64,000 nt of DNA, taken from NCBI GenBank assembly GCA_951406725.2, contig OX597838.1, positions 16,368,001 to 16,432,000 on the forward strand. Reading direction: 5' to 3'. Shown here one piece after another: positions 3,176 through 55,920 of the stretch. A program made the position numbers and the translations under genes. The stretch is from Octopus vulgaris (taxonomy: Eukaryota). The notes beneath the pieces are model-generated. The model was not told where the DNA came from and made no database searches. It saw only the letters and a list, made by a program, of their open reading frames with translations. Within the stretch, counting starts at the first letter, position 1, and each line of letters begins with the position of its first letter.

Positions 3176-3940
3176 TATTGTGGGGCTTGGGTGAAAGTAG
3201 ATTGGGAAACACTAGTGTAAACCTATTTAAAAGTGACAATCCTTATGGCAGTCACCACAGATGAAGATGAAGTCATCACTGTATGAAGTTGAAACCATCC
3301 ACTTCCTGAATTACTGATTTTTACCAAACCAGAAATGGTCAACCTCTAAATTCAACAAATATTAAATTTACTTTAAGTAAATGAACTACCAAGTACCTAT
3401 ACATTAGTATAATTGATACAAGTTCATTAATACTGTACTGTGCAAGGTACCGGTAAACTAGTCTAGCAGCCACAGGAATTTGAAGTTCCTACTCATAAAT
3501 TAGTACAGATTATAAGTGGTTTCAGATCATCAGTGTCTGGAAAGTTGTTGTTCCTGTATTTAAACTGAAATGAGTAAGAGTGTTATACTAAGCTGAGTAC
3601 TAATTAAGCCGAGTAATTGGAATAATGTTGAGCTAACTAATAGATTATCAAGGTCAATCACTTTTTATTTTTAAGGTTATCGGTATTAATGAACTTGTAT
3701 CAATTATACTAATGTATAGGTACTTGGTAGTTCATTTACTTAAAGTAAATTTAATATTTGTTGAATTTAGAGGTTGACCATTCCTGGTTTGGTAAAAATC
3801 AGTAATTCAGGAAGTGGATGGTTTCAACTCCATACAGTGATGACTTCATCTTCATCTGTGGTGACTGCCATAAGGATTGTCACTTTTAAAAAGGTTTACA
3901 CTAGTGTTTCCCAATCTACTTTCACCCAAGCCCCACAATA
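3176..3940. repeat. Long inverted repeat (258-bp arms, ~250-bp spacer)
   Basis: 3176-3433 is the reverse complement of 3683-3940 with about 3 mismatches seen. Confidence 0.95.
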
Positions 3941-4154
3941 TAACCAGCACTGATTTGTTATGACATTTCATATCCAAATACATCTAATGTAAACAATGTA
4001 ATCACAGAGAGAAAATTAGGTAATCGGTGTATATGCATATTTCAGGAGTTCTTGCTCCTTCATCAGCACCCATCCAACCCGTTAACCATCCACAAAATCA
4101 TTGCTTAAATAGCCACTAAATATAGTGGTATAACACTATTAGAGATACCAATTT

Positions 4155-9963: not shown

Positions 9964-10442
9964 GAAAACATCACCCTGGGTCCTGCATGCAAAGTTGGGC
10001 CTCCTATAAGCTTTAATTCACTGAAAACGTCACTCTGGGTCCTGCATGCAAAGTTGAGCCTCCTATAAGCTTTAATTCACTGAAAACGTCACCCTGGGTC
10101 CTGTATGCAAAGTTGGGCCTCCTATAAGCTTTAATTCACTGAAAACGTCACCCTGGGTCCTGCATGCAAAGTTGGGCCTCCTATAAGCTTTAATTCACTG
10201 AAAACATCACCCTGGGTCCTGCATGCAAAGTTGGGCCTCCTATAAGCTTTAATTCACTGAAAACGTCACCCTGGCTTCCTGCATGCAAAGTTGGGCCTCC
10301 TATAAGCTTTAATTCACTGAAAACGTCACCCTGGGTCCTGCATGCAAAGTTGGGCCTCCTATAGGCTTTAATTCACTGAAAACGTCACCCTGGGTCCTGC
10401 ATGCAAAGTTGGGCCTCCTATAAGCTTTAATTCACTGAAAAC
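9964..10442. repeat. 59-bp minisatellite, 8 copies
   Basis: Unit GAAAACGTCACCCTGGGTCCTGCATGCAAAGTTGGGCCTCCTATAAGCTTTAATTCACT; no spacers. Confidence 0.95.
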
Positions 10443-19018: not shown

Positions 19019-20571
19019 AAGTTGAGAACCACTAATTTAGATCATTTTAAAACAAGATGGTTTCTATCATAGAACTTGGAAGTGGGGTGAGCTCAGGCAG
19101 GCTGGTAGCAAAAGGGGTAAGTGTTCTGAGTTGCTAAATCTATGCCATAGCTATGTTCAAACAGATTAACTGACCGACAAAGTATACAACTTCTGGGTAA
19201 CAAGCTTTTTGCTTTAGTTTTTATTCTTTGCTTTTTGAAATAAAGAAGAAAAAAATCATTGTCTGAAAGGTTTATATAATATTTTAATGGCAAATATGAC
19301 ACTGAACTTTCATACTTTGACCTTGTAACTAATTTTTATACCCTAGAAATTTGATTCATTCTAGTTATTTAATATTCTAATCAGATGGCATTGTTAATTT
19401 TCTAGAAATAAACAGAGAATAAAAAAATCAGTGCATGAGAAAGTGAGACAGACGGACAGACAGATTGACAGACAGAAAGAGAATGTATGTGTGCATGTGT
19501 GGGTGTGATGCATACATACTCCCACATGATAAGACCAAAAATTGGGAATTTGTGTTACTGAGTTCAATTTTTATGGAACCAGGTTAGTAAAACATTTTGA
19601 AGAATAAGTGATAGCAGGTCAAGGCAACAAAAGTATTGATATAAAATGGGTGAGTTAACAATAAAGAGTAAAGACCCATTTCAGTCATGAATGACCATGG
19701 GATTGCACCTAGAAAGTTCTCCTCCAAGGCACAAGTCTATTCTTATTCTAGCAGCTATGCTCTCAGAGAATCCACCCCTACTACTGACTTGGTCACCTAG
19801 GTAATGGAAGCTACTACTACTACTAGTTCTAGTTTTTTCCCCTGGCATGTAATAGAATCTATTTTCTGTACATTATGTGCATGTGTGTGTGTGTGCATTA
19901 TAAGTATGACAAGCGTCTTTCAGTTTCCATCTACTAAATCCACTCACAAGTCTTTGGTCAGTCCAATGTTATAGTCAAAGGCACTTGCCCAAGGTGCCCC
20001 ACAGTGGGACTGAAACTGAAGCTTTTTACCACACAGCCTTGCCTGCACCTATGAAATTAAGAATTTATTAACATAACTTTGTCATTATTCATTAAGCTGG
20101 TGTTTGGAAGGGTTTAATTTAGATAATTTAAAACAGGAAGTTTGCATCATAGACCCAAGGGTGACCTCATCATGTTGGTTGGTATCAAAAGGATTAATTA
20201 ATTACTCAGGAAACATTTAGATATACAATCCTAACTGTTCTAGGATACATTTAATTCAATTATATGTAGTTGAACATCTTCAGGTTTCTTCAAATTGCTT
20301 CCAAGTAAAATGGGCGTCTGGAATCTTTAGAATACCTCCTTAACATTTTTTTTTAATTCTAAATTCCAACCAATTTTTCTTTCAGTGAAGAAAGAAATGT
20401 ACTTTTGGCATTATCATTATGTAAATGCCCCATAATTTAGTAATGTAAATCTCTGCTTGCTAAGCTAATATCAATAACAGAAAATACACTCACTGCAATA
20501 AATACACAAGGATCCTTCATGTGTAGGGATCTTCATTGTGCTTCAGTTGACAGTATCTTAAATTATAATCC

Positions 20572-22056
20572 TACATAAAGGAGGTAGCAGAGCAGAGGCC
20601 AGGAATTACAGACCTATCTCTCTGACCCCGCACATCAGCAAGGTCATGGAACAAATAGTCAGAAGGAAACTAATCACCTTCCTTGAAGAAAATGGTTTGC
20701 TGCCTGACACCCAACATGGTTTCCGACCAGGATGAAGTTGCCTGACTCAGCTCTTACAACACTACGACTGGGTGCTGAAACAGCTGCTCAACAACTCAAA
20801 TGTGGAAGTCATATATCTCAACTTTGCAAAGGCTTTTGATAAAGTCGATCATGAAATGATATGTCACAAACTGCGTGATCTCGGCATAGTTGGAAAATTG
20901 AGAGAATGGCTTCATGACTTTATGAAGGATAGAAGTCAAGTGGTAGTAGCCAATGGGGCCACCTCCAATGACATGCAAATAGTGAGCGGTGTTCCGCAAG
21001 GCACTGTTTTGGGACCACTACTATTCATAATGGCCCTCTCAAACATGCCTTCAGCCACACAGAGAGCCACAATCACAAGTTATGCAGATGATACAAAAGT
21101 CTCACAGGTAATACAGAACCCTGAAGACACTGTACCTGCAATGTGAGTTGGATGAAATATACAATTGGGCTGAAAAGAATAGCATGCAGTTTAATGCTGA
21201 AAACTTTCAAGCCTTGTGCTATCAGCATGCAAAACTAAATTCAATACCCATTAAATACACTGGACCTGGAGGGATTGCAATCCCAGAGGTACAGTCAGCG
21301 TGAGACCTGGGCATTTACGTGAGTAATGATGCATCCTTCCATGTGCATGTTGCTAAATTGGCAATGAAATGCAGGCAGCTGACTGGATGGATTCTTAGAA
21401 CTTTTAGAACAAGAAATCAGGAAACCATGATGGTCCTCTGGAGGACACTTGTCCTAAGCCACTTTGACTATTGCTCTCAGCTATGGTCACCATCCAGTGT
21501 CAAGTTAATCACAGAACTTGAGGCGATCCAACAAAGCTACACGAAGAAGATAGCCTCTGTGCAGCATATACACTACTGGGAAAGACTCAAGAGATTAAGA
21601 CTCTATTCCTTAGAGTGTAAGCGAGAAAGATATACCATAATATACATCTAGAAGATCCTGGAAGGACTTGTCCCAAACTTTGGCATCGAGAGTTACACAA
21701 GTACTAGAACTGGGCGCCACTGCATAGTGCCAAGGACTCCAAATTTGCCATCAAGATATAGGATAAGATACTGCAATAGCCTGAGCTTCAGAGGTCCATA
21801 GCTTTTAAATACCCCCCCAAAGACCTGAGAGAACTGCATGGGGTGGATGTAGGTGTCGTCAAAATAAAGCTGGACCTCTTACTGTCAAGTGTCCCAGATG
21901 AGCCAACTTCGCGGCAGGAGGTGCAGATGAGGGCACCAGTATGAAAGTCCCTCATGCAGCAAATGTCAATTCCTAAAAATAATTCACAAAGTAAAATTAT
22001 GTAGCAACACCAAGTGGTGGTGCCCCAGCAAGGCCACAGCTCGTGAGCTGAAACAA
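20572..22056 (+). pseudogene. 5'-truncated CR1-clade LINE (reverse transcriptase, stops and frameshifts)
   Basis: NYRPISLT, QHGFRPG, FAKAFDKVDH, SGVPQGTVLGPLLF and YADDTK motifs, C-terminal DYCSQLWSP; ends in a stem-loop then (TA)n. Confidence 0.92.
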
Positions 22057-24711: not shown

Positions 24712-25452
24712 TGATGGTGGCACATAAAAAGCATCAGTAATGGTGGCACATAAAAAAGCACCTGTAATGGTGGCACATAAAAAGCACCGGTAATGGTGGC
24801 ACATAAAAAGCACCAATGATGGTGGCACATAAAAACCACTGGTAATGGTGGCACATAAAAAGCACCGGTAAAGGTGGCACATAAAAAGCACCGGTAAAGG
24901 TGGCACATAAAAAGCACCGGTAATGGTGGCACATAAAAGGCACCGGTAATGGTGGCACATAAAAAGCACCGGTGATGGTGGCACATAAAAAGCACTAGTG
25001 ATGGTGGCACATAAAAAGCACTGGTGATGGTGGCACATAAAAAGCACTGCTGATGGTGGCACATAAAAAGCACTGGTGATGGTGGCACATAAAAAGCACT
25101 GCTGATGGTGACACATACCTTTTTCTTTATTACCCACAAGGGGCTAAACACAGAGCGGACAAACAAGGACAGACATAGGCATTAAGTCGATTACATCGAC
25201 CCCCAATACGTAACTGGCACTTATTTAATCGACCCCGAAAAGATGAAAGGCAAAGTTGACCTCGGCGGAATTTGAACTCAGAACGTAGCTGCAGACAAAA
25301 TACCGCTAAGCATTTCGCCCGGAGTGCTAACGATTCTGCCAGCTCGCCGCCATAGTAACATAAAAAGCACCGGTAATGGTGGCACATAAAAAGCACCGGT
25401 AATGATGGCACATAAAAAGCACCGGTGATGGTGGCACATAAAAAGCACTGGT
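24712..25452 (+). repeat. 26-bp minisatellite derived from the family R 3' UTR, interrupted by SINE S1
   Basis: Unit ATGGTGGCACATAAAAAGCACCGGTA, ~15 copies then ~4 copies; continues into a family R tail at 25460-25610. Confidence 0.9.
25120..25350 (-). mobile_element. SINE family S1
   Basis: Full-length homology to 16947-17178. Confidence 0.85.
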
Positions 25453-29634: not shown

Positions 29635-30697
29635 TTTTGGTTTCTTTGATATCCACTCAACTATCATATGAGATTACAAGGTCAATGATGTTACACTATT
29701 CATTCTGTCACTCCATAGTCTCTTTGCTTCATCAGCCAGTGCAAAGAAATCTCATGTGATCCTGTAATTATCATTTACCATGGAAGCCTCTGATTTGTGT
29801 TCATACCTTTATCCTATCACTTCAAATCCATGAACTTGGCTCACATTCCAATGCACTCTTTTACCAACACAGTCATGCTAGCATTTATACTCTTTTTATG
29901 TTAGCTTACAACACTTGCAGGGGAGACAGTTAATACTTTAATCCCCTTTTCTACACATTCTGTATTTGTTGTCTGTCATTAACAAATTCATTCTAATGGC
30001 TTGTTTCTGTGTGGCTATAATTAGCAATTCAGTTACTTGTTTCTGGTCTCCATCTTTCAATCAGCACAAGCTTTTCACTTCAAACCTCTTTGGTTTGTTA
30101 CATGAATTGGCCATGTAGTTACTTCTCTTTCTAGTTATTTGTCCTATATTCAATGTTTCACAGGTTTCTTCCATGTTTCTAGCTGCAGATAACAGTCTTT
30201 CCTCACCATAAAATTTTTATATGGCACCTTGGTTTTAGAATATAATGCAATAAAATGTTCCCCATGATGGATTCAATTGCACTAGGAACATCCAATGCAG
30301 AGGTTGCAAATAACCACAATGATCTCACACACACATACTTTATATATATACACTTTATACATATAACTTTCTATATATATACACACAGACACACACACAC
30401 ACATATATATATAAATGGGTAGTATAACATGTGGATTCAGAGGATGTGTGGCTATCAAAGAAAGCTCCTCTTACAAACTCACCTATCAGTTGTGAAACAG
30501 CTGTAAGCCTATGGAAGTCACATGGCTATATATATATATATATATATACAAAAAGCAATAAAGATTCAAGTTAATTTAAATGAATTTACTTGAATATGGT
30601 ACCTAACTTAGATGCACCAAAAAAAACTATACTGATTTAACAATACAGTAATGTGGGGTGATTATAAGCGAGAATGAAGCAACAAGAATGGATAGGT

Positions 30698-30788
30698 TTT
30701 TAGTACAATCGTTTCATACAAGGACAGGTTTTATTAAAAGTTGCAAAAATTACAGCATATAAACGTGTCCCGTACTCATCAGCTAAAA
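30698..30788 (-). ncRNA. Hammerhead ribozyme motif H2 (mirror copy)
   Basis: Reverse complement of 31384-31474. Confidence 0.7.
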
Positions 30789-31383
30789 TACATGTGAGTT
30801 CTCTAGACATCTTAGTGGTTGAGGCTATACTCATGAAGTAATGTAGATAATTAAGTAACATAAACAGATTTCAAAAGTTCATTAAAGTTCTTTAAAGATG
30901 ATGTACAGTCTTATCACAGAATTTTAAAAAGTCTTAATAGCATCACAGAGAAGGTGACCTAATCCATAGTGCACATATGAATTTCCAGAGATATGATGAG
31001 GGATTACATACTCACAGAAGACAAATTTATCCATTGTTAATTACAACGAGGTGGGTTTCAATTCCTGCTTATAAGCTAATATATAATTATATAATGCTAA
31101 TAAGCAGGAATTGAAACCCACCTCGTTGTAATTAACAATGGATAAATTTGTCTTCTGTGAGTATGTAATCCCTCATCATATCTCTGGAAATTCATATGTG
31201 CACTATGGATTAGGTCACCTTCTCTGTGATGCTATTAAGACTTTTTAAAATTCTGTGATAAGACTGTACATCATCTTTAAAGAACTTTAATGAACTTTTG
31301 AAATCTGTTTATGTTACTTAATTATCTACATTACTTCATGAGTATAGCCTCAACCACTAAGATGTCTAGAGAACTCACATGTA

Positions 31384-31474
31384 TTTTAGCTGATGAGTAC
31401 GGGACACGTTTATATGCTGTAATTTTTGCAACTTTTAATAAAACCTGTCCTTGTATGAAACGATTGTACTAAAA
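31384..31474 (+). ncRNA. Type I hammerhead ribozyme motif H2 with long stem II
   Basis: TTTTAG-CTGATGA-GTACGGGACA...TGTCCTTGTAT-GAA-AC gatt GT-A-CTAAAA; perfect 6-bp stem I; predicted cleavage after 31468. Confidence 0.75.
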
Positions 31475-32210
31475 ACCTATCCATTCTTGTTGCTTCATTC
31501 TCGCGTATATATATATATATGTATATTCACCTTTTATACACCCTGACTGGTTTTACACACACACACACAAACATATTTATAAATACATGGTTAAAGCTTA
31601 GCTGTTACCCACAAGTGGCAATGACCTGGTAGCATACACCAGACTATCATCACAAATGGTTTTTGGTGCTTGTATAGTCATGAGCAGACATAGACACTTC
31701 CTCAACCTCTCGGTCTTCCTTCTCTAGATCCAGTGGAACAGCAAGGATGTCACAGCTACAGGAAGAGAGAGTCACACAAGCAGTTAACAGATACTTAATT
31801 TTTAACCAAGTAGACTGGAGTAGCTTAAGGACATAACATGTTGCCCAGGCAAGAAACGAGCATATGCCCTTACAGTTATAAGGATAACACTTCTAACCAC
31901 AACACCATGTACTTTCAAGTGTGTTTGCGTGAGTGTTTCCGTTCCTTTCAAGTGTTATTATAACAACTTTGCTAAAACTTGTACCTCTCGCTTCGTCTTT
32001 TCCTTGATTTTGCTCATTACCTCATATATACTCTTTTACTTGTTTCAATCATTTGACTGCGACCATGCTGGAGCACCAGTCAGACAGTGACATTGGTTTC
32101 GTGCTTATAAAGTGCTTGGCTGTAAAGGTGACTCATCATGTGTGTGTGTGTGTGTGTATAACTATATATACATGTATATATTCATACATGTACATATGCA
32201 TATACACAAC

Positions 32211-32776: not shown

Positions 32777-32820
<44 letters not shown>

Positions 32821-32852
32821 TTTATTTAAAGCAGCAGAAAATTCAACAATAT

Positions 32853-32890
32853 CTGTTACTCTGAGTTTCTCGTTGCCGTTCATCAGACAG
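32853..32890 (-). ncRNA. Hammerhead ribozyme motif H3 (mirror copy)
   Basis: Reverse complement of 32915-32952. Confidence 0.6.
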
Positions 32891-32914
32891 TTTTTGCTAG
32901 AATTCTAGCAAAAA

Positions 32915-32952
32915 CTGTCTGATGAACGGCAACGAGAAACTCAGAGTAACAG
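32915..32952 (+). ncRNA. Minimal type I hammerhead ribozyme motif H3
   Basis: CTGT-CTGATGA-a CG gcaa CG a-GAA-ACT cag AGT-A-ACAG; GNRA-capped 2-bp stem II; GUA site at 32946-32948. Confidence 0.65.
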
Positions 32953-33055
32953 ATTTTGTTGAATTTTCTGCTGCTTTAAATAAAGCATATTACTCTACCA
33001 CTGGTATTTGAGTACTCTTTTTTTCCACCTTGTTTCACATTTATGTGTTTACTCC

Positions 33056-34227: not shown

Positions 34228-36390
34228 TCATACATGTACATATGTACATACAGAACATTATATATATATATATTCATACATGTATATCATCATCATCATC
34301 GTTTAACATCCGCTTTCCATGCTAGCATGGGTCGGACGATTTGACTGAGGTCTGGCGAACCAGATGGCTGCACCAGGCTCCAATCTTGATCCGGCAGAGT
34401 TTCTACAGCTGGATGCCCTTTCTAGTATATATAAATATATATTATATAAAAATACATATTTATTCATACATGCACATATGTATATACAATGTATAAATAT
34501 ACACACACATACACAAGAGTGTGTGTGTGTGAGAGAGAGAGGGTGCCAGTAATATTGAACTTCACAACGAATTAACTCTTCTACTCTCAGTAATAGTCAA
34601 ACCAATAAATGGTCAGTTGTTATTCTTAAAGGTCCTTTAAAATAACATTTCAATAGCATCCACACACACACATAGATGCTTGTATATGTACAAATATGTT
34701 TGTATATTTATCTACGTTTGTGCATAATTTGATGTATGTCTAGAATAAGTTAAACACGAAATAAAAAGGGTTTCTAATTTAGGTACAAGGCCAGCAATTT
34801 TGCTGACAGGTATTAGTTCATTACACTGATACCTCAGTAGATGACTGGTAAAATAGATCTCAGTGGGATTCGAAACCATAACATTTTAAAGAGTCAGAAG
34901 AAATACCTATTTCTTTACTACCCACAAGGGGCTAAACATCGAGTGGACAAACAAGGACAAACGTATTAAGTCGATTACATCGACCCCCAGAGCGTAACTG
35001 GTACTTAATTTATCGACCCCGAAAAGGATGAAAGGTAAAGTCGACCTCGGCGGAATATACCGCAAATCCTTTTTTCCAAAGAAATTCTAGACTAAACTGC
35101 TAAGCAACCATTTACATTTAAATTACATATTCATAAACTATGGGGAAGTGAAACTGGTTTCACTTCCGAGTTGACATAAAATACATTTTACCGACACTGT
35201 TAATCATCACTAATAGAATTTCCCTTCCCGTTAGGACAGCATCAAGTTGCCAGACAGAGCAACGAAATCGCCTTCAAAGCACACCCAACCATCTTTATAA
35301 CGACACACTGGATATTGTTACTCGGCATACTCTTATTCCAGAACAGTGTATGGCAGCAGCTGAACTGCCCTTTGATCGTAGGTCTGTCTGCTCTATCGGG
35401 ACTGACATGGACTAAACAGAAATAACTCTGCTCTATTAATTTGCCATTATATAACTATGTAAAGAAGAAAAAAAATCCTCATTAACATACATTGATTTTA
35501 TCTTATCTCTTCATAGATAAAGAAAACGAAGATATTGAATATAGATTTCTTAATAGCTCTGATGTCACTTAAATGCTTTATATAAGGAAATGAAATTACA
35601 CTCAACAGTGAGCCGAGAGACTAGTCACTGCATAACAGATATAACATCTTCCTTTCATGTACCTCTGTGCTTTTATAATCTCTTATGGGAGGTTGTGGCC
35701 ATGTGAAACCATAGTGTGATGCTTAAGACTCCTAAATGTTTCACACTGTTCATATTCTGCTGCAAAAGTCAAGGCTTCCAACAGAAATTTGGCAAGGCGG
35801 AACAGATTACTTTCAGGTCCTGGAAGGAGGGGATCCTATCAAAATCGAGGTTTTGTTTGTTTGTTTAAGAAAGGTACCCACAGTTATCTTTCCTAGGCTC
35901 TCAGGCCCCATACTGATGCACCGGTCGACCTCCCTCACTCTAATGTTAAAGGTTGCGATCTTATTTACAACAGTCTACGACTGAGGGCAAGGCCGAAATT
36001 TGTAGGTGAAACGAGGGCAGTGATTTTTACCTATTACTGTTGTAGGTGAAAAATAACGATAACTATAAACTTGGCTGTATTTGAACTCAGAACTTCCAGA
36101 TACATCTAAATGCTGCAAAGCAATCATATAAAAAATGACTAAATATGTTCCATATATATATATATATATAAATATGTTCCATATATATATATATGCATGC
36201 ATGCAAATATATAAGAATAATATAACACAAGAATGGGACATATCAGACTTTAATAGTGATTATATTTGTTTTCTGCACCACACACCAGCCTTTATATTCA
36301 TATACCATTATACAAGATAATTCTATTACGAGGTTTTGTCCGAATTATACTATATATATATAAATATTATAGTGGGGTACGCTGGTTTAT

Positions 36391-36451
36391 GGGGGTACCC
36401 TGGGCTTCTCGCTCATAAGGGGTTTAGCCTTACGGCGTATCGTCAGACCCC
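36391..36451 (-). ncRNA. Hammerhead motif H4 (variant mirror copy)
   Basis: Minus strand GGGGT-CTGACGA...CGCCGTAAGG...CCTTATGAGCG a-GAAGC CCAGG GTA-CCCCC; carries GAAA to GAAG change. Confidence 0.5.
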
Positions 36452-36492
36452 ACTTTGAAATATTTTAAAGAGGTCTCAGGCCAGCAGTGTTT

Positions 36493-36553
36493 GGGGTCTG
36501 AAGATACGCCGTAAGGCTAAACTCCTTATGAGAGAGAAACCCAGGGTAACCCC
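36493..36553 (+). ncRNA. Type I hammerhead ribozyme motif H4
   Basis: GGGGT-CTGAAGA...CGTAAGG ctaaact CCTTATG...GAA-ACCC a GGGT-A-ACCCC; perfect stem I; GUA site at 36546-36548. Confidence 0.7.
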
Positions 36554-36676
36554 ATAAATCGATCTACCCCACTATAATATTGACTACTCTACATCTTAGA
36601 GTGCGCTTCTCCTCCGGATTTATGCATTTCTACAAACGATCATATATATTTTGAGATAGATAGATATATGTATATA

Positions 36677-36791
36677 CAGGGTGTCTATAAAGTCATGATG
36701 CAATTTAAAATACATGTAACTTCGTAGAAGAATTTATCTGTAAAAAGGATAAGAAAGCTTGATGCGACTAGTTTTTCAGCCGGACACCTTG
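36677..36791. mobile_element. Tiny Tc1-type MITE
   Basis: TA|CAGGGTGTC...GACACCTTG|TA. Confidence 0.55.
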
Positions 36792-38093
36792 TATACACAC
36801 ACACACACACATTATTTTGATAGTGAGAGCTCATCCATTCCCATGATCTGTACCCATGAAAGAGAAATCTCTGTAGGTTTTCTCACTATCAAAAATAAGT
36901 ATACACTACACAATGGTTTTCTCTAGTTCTATATTGGACATGTTCCATGTATAAATATAGTTTCAAGAGGTTCTGAACATCAATTACATGTTCACTTGCT
37001 AAATAATCGAGGGTGAAACTTTATTTTTTCAACCCTTTGGGGATCAATAAATAGGATATGTCCATTACTGCAGTCAATGCTTCGTCTCTCGCCCCCGCTT
37101 AAAGAAATCAGCTCTAGGCGTTTGACCAGCTGGAAATAGCAGTCAAAATCTAAAACTATGTCCCACAGCCTTGGAAAGAGGAAGCCACATTAAGCAATAT
37201 TGTCTTACACACACAAACACACAAAATAAATATCCATTTAGTCACGGCTGGAATGCTTTTGATTATAGGTTTGCTCGACCAGGATATTGACTTAGGGGCT
37301 TAACAACCAGTATGGTACTCAACTTGCTAGAAATAGCAGCCAATTTTTTTTTTTCAAATTATATCCAACCACATTACGAAAGAAAAGAGAAAACATTAGA
37401 TAACGTAGTCTTAGATACATAATAGCAAAAAGAAAAAAATAATAGAGGAATGGTCACAGCTGGAATGCCTTTGATCACAAGTCAGCTCGATCGGCACAGA
37501 CCTGGGGTTAAACATCAACAAAAAAAATGAAAGTAAAAAGGGTATTTTGACACTTAAAAGAAACGAGAAAACACACACAATCACTTATATAATCAGTTAT
37601 TATTCTTTAAACAATTTTTTTTTCCTCGTGTTTTGAGTAATGTGTGACTGGTGACTTATTTTATAATCTCCATCTGTTTTCAAAGTGGGTTTCTATGTGG
37701 GGAATACATAAATAAGCTACAGGAGGCCAACATTCTACGACTGAAGGACAAATTCTTCTCTCTCACTCTCGTTTAGAAACCAGGACTATGAGTCATTCAA
37801 GACTCGGAGAAACGATTTTTAACTTTGTTATTCAATTATCTTAGAACGTGTGGGTGGATTATTGTGTTTATAGATTGATTAATTTCCGCCACTACCGCCT
37901 TCATCGCCATGCTCACACCATGATTGCAGAAATGTCTTTAATGAGTTTATGCCTATGCTTATATTAAACAAGCAATAATTGAACATACGTATTAATAAGC
38001 ACTCGTAGATGAATGCATTATATATTCCATATACATACACCACATATGTTGCGTATATTTTCACATATGCAAAAGCTTCATATATAAGTACAC

Positions 38094-38678: not shown

Positions 38679-39310
38679 AGATAGAGAGAAGGTGGTAGAC
38701 AAAATAGGAGATTAAAAAAACATTTTTAACACAAAATATAGGGCCGCGAATCTCAGTAAGGGGCAGTTGATTTAATCGGCCCTTATCCCTACATGTGAAT
38801 GGCATTTATATTCCGGACCATGTTAGAACAAATAGCCAAGACGATTTGGGTGGAATTAGAACTTATAATGCGTGTTTGAAAGGGCGTGTTTGAATAACGA
38901 AGGCTATTAGGGCCCCTGAAGGATGGAAAAGCTAAGTCGATCTTGATGGGATTGGAACTCAAAATGTATTAGAAAGTAGATATTTAAATAAGATAGAGAG
39001 AAGGTGGTAGACAAAATAGGAGATTAAAAAACCATTTTTAACACAAAATATAGGGCCGCGAATCTCAGTAGGTAAGGAAGGGGCAGTTGATTTAATCGGC
39101 CCTTATCCCTACATGTGAATGGCATTTATATTTCGGACCATCCTAGAACAAATAGCCAAGACGATTTGGGTGGAATTAGAACTTATAATGCGTGTTTGAA
39201 AGGGCGTGTTTGAATAACGAAGGCTATTAGGGCCCCTGAAGGATGGAAAAGCTAAGTCGATCTTGATGGGATTGGAACTCAAAATGTATTAGGAAGTAGA
39301 TATTTAAATA
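38679..39310. repeat. Tandem duplication (312 + 320 bp)
   Basis: 38679-38990 is repeated at 38991-39310 with few differences. Confidence 0.95.
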
Positions 39311-39949
39311 AGGAAGGGTATTAAAGCATTTTTTTTTATTGATCTTTATTCTGCTATCTACTGCCCTGATAGAATATAAAGAATGACATCACATTGGATA
39401 ATAATAATAATAATAATTAATGATGATTTTTTAGAGTATATTTTTCAGCAGAGCTTAAAAGAAAACAACGTTGTCGGCGATATAAATATTTTCTTCATTT
39501 TGCCTTGAGAATAATATGATTAGGATAATTATAGGTTCAATACTAAGTAATCGAATGGTCGTCCAACGAGATGTGTGTATGTATATGTGTGTCTTTTTTC
39601 GTTTGACATACCAGAAATATGTGTAGTATACATACATTTTCGGTCTGACATACCGGATGTATATATATATATATAGGGCTTTATCTTTAAAAAAATTCCT
39701 GCATTTGCTTACAAAGCCACAGCAAAGAAAGAAAAAGAACACACAGAATTTAATATAATATATAAATAATATAACATATTTATATTTAAAAAATTCATAG
39801 GAAAGCGATCAGGATAAGAAATGAAAATTATTCAGTCACTATAGAAAGATATCTGACAGAAGGAACTGTCAATAGTAAAACAGGTGACCGTACAAATTCC
39901 TTATCGTTTAACCCTAAGAACGATTGATTTCCGTTCACCACGATTAACG

Positions 39950-42380: not shown

Positions 42381-42972
42381 TACATAACGCTTGTATATTT
42401 CTAGAGAAAAAAATTCTCAGAGATATTAACTAGGGGCGTCATCAGACATAAAAAAAAAATCAGTTGTTGGCATTTTAATACACTGAGTACAAAAAAGTCT
42501 ATCAGGAATAATAAAGATTTGAGGAAACGAGAATAATAGTCAATGAATAAAATATTTTATTCTGGCAAGTATGGGAAACAACTCTATACATGTTTCTGCA
42601 TTATTACATCTCATCGAAGAATAAACTTCACATCGTGTAGTAGAAGTGAGAGGATCGGTAAGAAAATGTACAATATTATACACTGGTCAACATAGCAAAA
42701 TAAAACATTTTAGCCCAAAGGCCTCCAAATATATCCTGTCACAAAATCTTTATTCTTTTATTTGTTTCAGTCATTTGACTGCAGCCATGCTGGAGCACCA
42801 ACTTAAGGGGTTTTAATCAAACAAATCGATCCCAGGATTTATTCTTTGTAGGCCTAGTATTTATTCGATCGGTCTCTTTTGCCCAACCGTTAAGTTATGG
42901 GGACATAAACACACTAACATCGGTTGTCAAGCGATGTTGGGCGGACAATACAGACACAAACACACAAATATA

Positions 42973-47623: not shown

Positions 47624-48283
47624 ATATTGCATGTGTAGAAATTAATTGATAAACCAATGAAATATAGAGGAAATAATTGATTTATTGATCACAGTGCATT
47701 GTGCTTAGTACAAATACATTACTTTTCATTTCTAGCACTCTTCTCTACTGTTACATCCACACACACACACAACGTTTGATACTCTATTACTCTTTTCTGT
47801 CACTGGAGTGTAGCCAATTTGAGGAAGGCCCCGATTACCACCACCACCACTGTCAAAGGATTTTTTTTTTCAGCTGACTACGATCACAGCTGACTACTTA
47901 TTTCAGACTGGCTCTTAATTTATCAGTTTCTATTCACTGAATGGCTAAGTTACCTGAAATATCTTCTTATAATATAAATATATCATAATTGTATGTGATT
48001 GTTTATGTACCTATGTCTATGTGCTTGTATATGTGTCTACATTGTTTGGTATAAATTTAACAATATTTTGTGTCTCCTTTTTACAGGAACAGCTTGACGT
48101 ATTGGTGAAGAGTCTATGGCGTTGGAGAGCATAAAGATTAAAGTTATAATTGAGGAAAAGTTAGCTGACATCAAGGGTTAGAAGCCATCTGAATATTGGA
48201 GAAGAATTTATTGTATCAAGATGATTATGCTGAATTTCAAACTGCTGACATCGTTACTGCTGCTCAATGCCCAGTGAATACTA

Positions 48284-48840
48284 TTGGGTTGTCCGGAAAG
48301 TTTGTGCCAATTTTTAAAGGAAAGAAAAAGGTCAATAAATACTTGCCATTACATCTTTAATCAACCAAATATGAACCATTTTGTTGCACAATGCGTCTCC
48401 ATCTTTCCTTTCACTTGAAAATACCCTCTTCCCAGAATTGAGGTGGTTTCATGGCAAAGAATTCATCAAGGTATCTTTTTACGTCATCCAAGGAATTGAA
48501 ATTTTTACCATTAAGACTATTCTGCAGAGACCTGAATAAGTGGATATCCGAAGGAGCAATATCTGGAGGGTGGGGTAACACATCCCAGCCGAGCTGCAGA
48601 AATTTTTGTCTGGTTCCCAAAGCAGCAAGTGCCGAAAATGAACTTTCTTATCTTCCATTTTAAAGGGTTACAGAATTAACACAGGTTATAGGAACATAAA
48701 CCTGCTTCCACGAAAAGATAGCTTAAACTGTGCTCTAAATGGAGGTGCAATCAAATCCTATTTTATGGACTCAACCATGTTCTAAAATAAGTCGAAAGGT
48801 AAGCTACTATAAATTGGCACGAACTTTCCGGACAACCCAA
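48284..48840 (-). mobile_element. Internally deleted mariner element
   Basis: TA|TTGGGTTGTCCGGAAAGTT...AACTTTCCGGACAACCCAA|TA; remnant LGWDVLPHPP..DIAPSDIHLFRSLQNSL. Confidence 0.9.
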
Positions 48841-48924
48841 TATAAAAGCTGTAAGATGTGACATGGACAGCTGCAATGGAGATTCTGAAGCTGTGACCGG
48901 CAGGAAAGGACACAGCAGATGGAA

Positions 48925-54820: not shown

Positions 54821-55207
54821 GGATCTTTTCCCTTTGAACGGCAGATCGAGAAATTATTTTTTTGTAACTAAACACTTTCAGACTTCGGACACTGGTAGAA
54901 TGTGTCATATAAAACATCTTTTACTCTTAGCGTTGTTGAGAAAAGTTTATATTTTCAAAATTATTTTGTGTTAAAGTTGTCGTATTTCGGTACTTTCCAC
55001 CAATCAATGACGTGTATTCAGCTGAATTAAAATTACTGCCGTTGTTTGTCAACAACAACTATTGGTGGTGTATATTTTGTTTGTCACTGTTATTTATGAC
55101 ATCATTCATGCGTTTGTACTGGTTTTAGCTAGAAGGTTTTAGGGTTAGGGTTAGGGTTTTAGTGTTAGGTTTTTAGGGTTAGGGTTAGGGTTTTAGGGTT
55201 AGGGTTA
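54821..55207 (+). mobile_element. Dispersed element with (TTAGGG)n-like 3' tract
   Basis: Flanked by direct repeat GAG[G/A]CCATGAGTC at 54808-54820 and 55208-55220. Confidence 0.75.
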
Positions 55208-55920
55208 GAGACCATGAGTCTAATCTTTAGCAACAATGGAAACAATTTGGAACATGTTTCTATCTTAGTAAACCTCAACAGCAAAGCATAACACACTTAT
55301 ACTTGGGAAATTTTCCAGTGTTGTAAGTAATAGATCTTTGCTTGACATTTGAAACCAGAACTCATTTTTTTCATACCAGAGTCTTTAAAATGGACTGATG
55401 GTGTTATCAAGAAGCTGGTTATTCATTTTCTTGAATAGACATCAAAACTGACAGATTGATGTCAGTATAAAAACTGACCATTTAAAATTCACAAATGCAC
55501 TTGATGACATCACCAGGAAGCTTAACCCATGCTAACGCTGTCCGTGGCAATCAGTCAACTTCAATATAAAAAATCTTTCAAGAATGCAAAGACAAAAGAA
55601 CAGGACAGACAGAGAGTAGGATAGACAAAGAGGAACAAAGAACAAGAACACATATCAAGCATTACATCTGCTATTAATCACGTATCAGTTGTTTGATGTG
55701 ACAGATTTGTCGAATATGAAGAGCTTCAACATTGAAAAGAGCTGAGATGCTTCAAACTTGAGCACTACCCAATGGCAGATGACACTTACATTCCACTCAC
55801 TCACTCACTCACTCTCTCTCTCTCTCTCTCTCTCTCCCTTTCCCCCTCTCCCTCTGTCTAGCTATCTCTTTCTCTCGTGCTCTCACTGTATCTAAAGTCC
55901 ACAACCACACCGCTTTATCG

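Follow-up and report, generated by a model that had tools for sequence, protein, structure and literature searches.

A short, imperfect palindrome in the genome of Octopus vulgaris (36363-36581) carries what look like two opposed hammerhead ribozymes, which raises the questions of whether these motifs are genuine, how they came to lie head to head and whether they can still act. We examined them in the context of the window, that is, the whole stretch of 64,000 nucleotides of DNA that was analysed. The hammerhead pair is real and probably dead by now, and we consider it likely that the palindrome is the fossil trace left when a Penelope-like retrotransposon (PLE) inserted, its 3' end having been copied twice in inverted order and then decayed. 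The palindrome and its boundaries comprise:

36363-36581, unstranded: the whole head-to-head palindromic insertion, a putative truncated PLE remnant (repeat search and alignment)
36349-36362, unstranded: (TA)n run bordering the palindrome on the left, the putative target site
36363-36389, minus strand: left 3' tail, which departs from the right tail at 5 positions clustered in 36380-36385 (alignment)
36453-36470, unstranded: junction palindrome centred on 36461/36462, in which 8 of 9 pairs form (alignment and shuffles)
36471-36491, plus strand: 21 nt present on the right side only, a left-arm deletion or a right-arm insertion (alignment)
36555-36581, plus strand: right 3' tail; the symmetry stops 33 nt past the cleavage site

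Firstly, we established the extent of the symmetry. The inverted repeat consists of two arms, 36363-36452 and 36492-36581, with 39 nt between them. An initial annotation, made from the sequence alone, had described 89-bp arms differing at several sites; the differences are there (80 of 90 positions match, that is, 89% complementarity, leaving 10 differing sites), although each arm measures 90 nt. Global alignment revealed that the symmetry runs past the inner arm ends to the centre, adding eight pairs out of nine, and 179 of 100,000 spacer shuffles matched the observed junction palindrome score against an arm. Since the arms extend to this centre, the element is a near-zero-spacer palindrome, and the 39 nt between them are no genuine spacer. 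At the outer ends, both arms stop together and no tail is definable at one end only; the TA or TATA found on both flanks of this single copy is formally readable as a target duplication.

Secondly, we inspected the two hammerheads, which both point outward and have the type I layout:

36492-36554, plus strand: right type I hammerhead; matches the strict descriptor and fails the stem II rule of the second descriptor
36492-36497 and 36549-36554, plus strand: 5' and 3' strands of the right stem I
36498-36504 and 36536-36538, plus strand: right core and GAA
36505-36535, plus strand: right stem II region, with a base pair broken at 36533
36539-36547, plus strand: right palindromic stem III, with the cleavage triplet GTA at 36546-36548
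36390-36452, minus strand: left type I hammerhead, damaged; passes the stem II rule and fails the strict descriptor

The type I core is defined as C3-U4-G5-A6-N7-G8-A9, G12-A13-A14, A15.1, U16.1 and H17 (PMC3088659). It reads CTGAAGA on the right (+36498) and CTGACGA on the left (-36446), and so differs at N7, as the initial annotation had reported. That annotation was equally right that one arm keeps GAAAC and a perfect stem I: this is the right arm, in which all invariant core bases are intact and stem I has 6 bp (TGGGGT/ACCCCA). The left arm reads GAAGC, i.e. it has a G at 15.1 (36405) and has lost A15.1, and a T:C mismatch occupies the base of its stem I (pair 1.1, 36395). Together with the break at the base of the right stem II, these lesions are complementary between the arms, as had been proposed. 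The left arm had also been credited with the better stem II base. Its stem II as a whole is indeed the better one (36409-36439, 10 bp with one bulge, -11.5 kcal/mol versus -6.4 kcal/mol in the right arm, which has no continuous stem II), but the G10.1-C11.1 pair is absent from both arms; A faces A, or a U-A pair is followed by a bulge, and both arms fail at the closing pair 10.1-11.1. A mismatch at this position was used to reject candidates in PMC3088659, yet one active natural U-U case is reported there. A U follows the core in both arms and is possibly an extra base between A9 and 10.1, a register that is ambiguous because there is no G-C pair at the base of stem II.

The strict descriptor demands an exact GAAA, at which the left arm fails, and the second descriptor demands stem II, at which the right arm fails, so that neither arm satisfies both. 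Even so, when the right arm was base-shuffled 300,000 times, 11 of the shuffled sequences satisfied the strict descriptor, making a chance resemblance very unlikely, and the window contains 7 matches to it, compared with a mean of 0.24 and a maximum of 2 in 100 shuffles. Stem III is a 9-nt palindrome with a central A, predicted to form an 8-bp self-duplex (-11.6 kcal/mol), and the two cores lie 52 nt apart. A second ACCCCA inside the right 3' tail is a possible competitor for stem I; its pairing with stem I was rejected as a ribozyme fold, there being no U-H before it in either arm. Rfam gave no match at gathering score anywhere in the window, and its 13 weak matches in 35500-37500 (E up to 10) included no hammerhead family. 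Rfam is insensitive here, because intact neighbouring hammerheads were also missed at gathering score. A MIR5200 match (E 4e-4) was set aside as far under the gathering score and as reflecting the hairpin.

Thirdly, we analysed how the arms have diverged. Five of the ten differences fall inside the 63-nt ribozyme, and the other five are confined to 6 nt of the 3' tail. Within the ribozyme, the changes at N7 and at a loop II base are neutral, one change breaks a stem II pair on the right and two remove A15.1 and pair 1.1 on the left; three of the five are structure-damaging, and no compensatory change is among them. With 79% of positions under constraint, three or fewer damaging changes out of five have P = 0.28. 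The arm differences fit neutral decay, and the N7 variation, which had been read as a sign of core conservation, is no evidence of selection. The five tail differences in 6 nt are unexplained by single-base drift: 435 of 200,000 random placements were as tight, and either a single complex mutation or the copying of two differing templates is suggested by the cluster. Per-arm divergence is 0.06, or 0.035 if the tail cluster is counted as a single event. On the octopus scale of PMC13282606, where 0.065 corresponds to 18 My, the insertion would date to roughly 10-17 My ago, a figure that would be too young if the arms underwent gene conversion. The proposal that an intact ancestor could be reconstructed from the arms was not supported: there is no majority consensus because there are only two copies, and three of the differing sites are polarisable only by assuming the hammerhead structure, while the other seven are not polarisable.

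We then assessed by fold prediction whether the motifs could still act. The isolated right ribozyme forms stem I with a probability of ~0.7 and no continuous stem II. For two isolated right-arm copies, the minimum-energy cofold adopts a double-hammerhead topology with intermolecular stems I and III; the energy gain of this dimer is not beyond that of shuffles (32 of 200 as good), nor is it for any of the 7 sequences compared (19-167 of 200 as good). Once the upstream and tail sequences are added, the ribozyme fold is lost from both the predicted monomer and the predicted dimer. For the right arm, taken from centre to end, the predicted ribozyme-compatible fraction is 3e-5; for the intact neighbours it is 1e-4 to 5e-4. 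Read-through RNA of the whole element is predicted to form one long hairpin (-153.0 kcal/mol, versus -77.8 kcal/mol with the ribozyme forced) containing a duplex of ~90 bp, in which the ribozyme would be trapped, and no cis dimer can form in one RNA because the arms lie on opposite strands. On these models, the hammerheads at this locus very probably do not cleave. PLE hammerheads are reported to be inactive as monomers and weak as dimers (PMC4209133), to cleave poorly except as dimers (PMC4209133, PMC6765202) and, in one case, to cleave only with the element's protein (PMC11167929). Because such hammerheads are weak as dimers or protein-dependent, a consensus that failed to cleave would be an unsafe refutation of a hammerhead origin.

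Two neighbouring palindromes served as comparators:

32815-32990, unstranded: zero-spacer palindrome, centre 32902/32903, arms ~99% identical
30663-31509, unstranded: 414-nt perfect inverted repeat running on to a near-zero-spacer centre at 31086/31087

The first has hammerheads at +32919 and -32886, which are very small (2-bp stem II with A:A at its base), in arms that differ at one site; the second has hammerheads at +31390 and -30782. Three hammerhead palindromes of differing sequence lie within 6 kb, and the ribozymes point outward in all of them. Beyond the cleavage site, the symmetry continues for 33, 42 and 41 nt in 36363-36581, 32815-32990 and 30663-31509, respectively; in both comparators the final few nucleotides are TA-rich and possibly belong to the flank. 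In two of the palindromes only 15-36 nt separate the core from the centre upstream of it, and in the third 303 nt do. All three have an AT-rich centre and a (TA)n run on one flank, the latter being weak evidence, given how abundant these runs are throughout the window. Three of the five hammerhead loci sit in zero-spacer palindromes, which cover ~3.4% of the window (binomial 4e-4, a post hoc figure for a hand-picked set of palindromes).

A third copy of the 36363-36581 arm is absent from the window, as are direct and tandem copies. Apart from itself, the arm's best BLAST match within the window is the GAAA/stem III segment at +32919 (15/17, E 0.79). This match is non-significant alone; its two differing bases constitute a compensatory stem III pair, the +32919 family having the same 9-nt stem III layout with a compensatory swap. 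Alignment with MAFFT did not bring the four hammerhead families into register.

The palindrome therefore presents two damaged type I hammerhead copies, each with ~33 nt of 3' sequence, joined head-to-head beside (TA)n. It is from this anatomy that we infer PLE membership, because neither a third copy in the window nor, in 300 of its 367 stop-free stretches, a parent element was found. PLE hammerheads described in PMC4209133 likewise have CUGANGA, GAAA, a palindromic stem III and a short stem I, and they occur in truncated copies as opposite-strand pairs ~100-700 bp apart; their CUGANGA is followed by an extra base, to which the U after the octopus cores may correspond. The octopus palindrome differs from these in having A:A (or U-A and a bulge) instead of G10.1-C11.1 at the base of stem II, a longer, bulged stem II, a 9-nt stem III palindrome with a central A, and a distance of only 52 nt between the cores. 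In the PMC4209133 alignment, a row of insecure identity also has an extra A before GAAA. Head-to-head PLE insertions (PMC3846280, PMC8557442) share with it the inverted truncated copy, the junction palindrome, the outward 3' ends and the AT-rich or (TA)n target, whereas here both copies are only ~100-120 nt long and lack coding sequence. The head-to-head order with junction palindromes is a frequent PLE form, attributed to self-priming (PMC3846280). According to PMC8557442, a 5'-truncated copy in inverted orientation and a tail of 30-40 bp are often found in PLE insertions, and (TA)n is a preferred target of some clades. Naiad PLEs also target (TA)n and insert in inverted form; unlike the octopus palindrome, they are described in PMC8557442 as being without canonical hammerheads. 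The supplement of that paper lists two octopus Naiad families, and short motifs of the palindrome and its neighbours had no true match in it.

On the PLE reading, the GIY-YIG endonuclease of the element would have nicked AT-rich DNA, reverse transcription would have begun ~33 nt downstream of the ribozyme cleavage site, and copying would have halted some tens of bases upstream of the ribozyme. The inverted second copy could have arisen by self-priming fold-back, or from cDNAs of both nicked strands annealing at a short palindrome. The arms would have been nearly identical at the start and have diverged since. The hammerhead of the parent RNA would have been active in dimeric form, with pairing via the palindromic stem III. 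A PLE protein has been reported to cut and extend both strands at AT-rich sites, with reverse transcription starting at internal sites downstream of the ribozyme (PMC11167929). A Pfam scan of 300 of the 367 stop-free stretches of the window found no GIY-YIG domain or PLE reverse transcriptase, an absence that is expected of a truncated copy; the sole reverse transcriptase remnant above or near the cut-off in the scanned stretches is LINE-type and lies 15 kb from the palindrome. A further proposal, which we regard as rather doubtful, is that the palindromic stem III, besides switching on cleavage, pairs two element RNAs with two-fold symmetry and that a dimeric PLE protein copies both simultaneously from the two nicked target strands. 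If this were true, one would expect head-to-head palindromes with zero spacer whose ends lie at a fixed distance from the ribozyme. The clustered tail differences would be a record of two template RNAs, and palindromes of the shortest kind might be able to spread as whole units.

One alternative is that the palindrome is not a dead-on-arrival truncation but a non-autonomous unit derived from a PLE end and re-mobilised whole, as a mini retro-element related to retrozymes. The centres lying 15-36 nt upstream of the core in two of three palindromes look as if pared to a cis-acting end, and PLE terminal repeats alone have been reported to mobilise other sequence in trans (PMC3846280). We nevertheless find this origin unlikely, since each palindrome family is single-copy in the window and the 303 nt upstream of the core in the third palindrome are what variable truncation predicts. 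Animal non-LTR retrozymes (bioRxiv 10.64898/2026.07.22.740005, PMC7229834) are, like the palindrome, non-coding and endowed with a type I hammerhead, and they are linked to PLEs, as the palindrome probably is; they are described, however, as direct tandem repeats that can form cis dimers and circles (bioRxiv 10.64898/2026.07.22.740005), which the inverted arms cannot do. We rejected identity with a tandem non-LTR retrozyme, the window holding no direct or tandem copy.

MITEs and foldback DNA transposons are short and palindromic, with a possible TA duplication, as is 36363-36581, and the formal duplication on its two ends would suit a derivative of such a transposon whose terminal inverted repeats (TIRs) resemble or captured a hammerhead. 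To our knowledge, no hammerhead is expected in these elements. Such transposons are present in the window: 48282-48842 has 35-bp terminal inverted repeats and TA flanks, and resembles a mariner-type MITE. This element, however, has no hammerhead match and a long non-palindromic interior, whereas the ends of 36363-36581 are tied to the position of the ribozyme. A transposon origin is quite unlikely in view of the shuffle frequency given above and of the three palindromes of different sequence, all of which have an outward-facing hammerhead placed about equally far from the end.

It is very unlikely that the host has exapted the RNA, either as a working plus-strand ribozyme or as a hairpin feeding small-RNA or RNA-editing pathways. 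The complete set of invariant core bases and the 6-bp stem I of the right arm, and the ~90-bp duplex predicted in read-through RNA, would be compatible with such a role; the arm differences include no compensatory change and are in keeping with neutral decay, the predicted ribozyme-compatible fraction of the right arm is minute (3e-5, the intact neighbours also being low), and the Pfam scan of 300 of the 367 stop-free stretches found no host exon nearby. An assembly or amplification fold-back artefact is scarcely credible, for although zero-spacer palindromes are a typical form of chimeras and the two neighbouring palindromes have arms 99-100% identical, the arms of 36363-36581 show 10 differences in 90 sites plus a 21-nt indel, this 11% divergence counting against an artefact as the initial annotation had argued, and artefacts would not stop at a similar distance from a ribozyme.

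With the PLE reading retained, the arrangement and the ribozyme type are already published, and 36363-36581 is most likely an ordinary genomic fossil and not a new RNA device. It matters little as a single locus, because thousands of such hammerhead motifs are reported per animal genome (PMC4209133). The words 'hammerhead' and 'ribozyme' are absent from the main text of the O. vulgaris repeat paper (PMC13282606), and no description of the 36363-36581 family was found among the papers listed for octopus Penelope elements and hammerheads; supplements or Repbase/Dfam may hold it. Prokaryotic genomes (0 loci), plasmids and phages, which are not the expected hosts, yielded no sequence related to the palindrome. 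Rfam misses short palindromes of this type, which can also be misread as MITEs. Three adjacent families that end 33-42 nt past the cleavage site and have zero-spacer junctions suggest a genome-wide dataset, which could separate self-priming from two-strand priming in PLE integration.

Several other features of the window were recorded. The hammerheads of 30663-31509 are identical and intact, with a long stem II and an 8-nt near-palindromic stem III, and TTTTAG immediately precedes their core, like a splice acceptor; this locus is a better candidate for an active ribozyme than 36363-36581. At 4026-4070 on the minus strand lies a lone hammerhead, which is intact and whose stem III is a perfect 10-nt palindrome; it is 90 nt from a 258-nt inverted repeat (3176-3940, 99% identical, 249-nt spacer) that ends in CCCCACAATA, resembling CCCCACTATA of 36363-36581. 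A weak match to the strict descriptor at 42445 (minus strand), without stem II and beside a TA run, may be decayed or due to chance. The stretch 35973-36010, 350 nt to the left of 36363-36581, is possibly a heavily decayed hammerhead-like sequence, with an incomplete core and no descriptor match. As a whole, the window consists of repetitive, animal-like DNA with abundant microsatellites and dispersed repeats. Its tandem arrays at 9964-10442, 24714-25117 and 38679-39312, with units of 59, 26 and 320 nt and 92-96% matches, contain no hammerhead matches. The LINE-type reverse transcriptase remnant is broken and lies at 20562-21143 on the plus strand (Pfam RVT_1), its best homologue being 80% identical among the matches listed (762 in total), and an interstitial telomere-like array of the TTAGGG type occupies 55135-55208.
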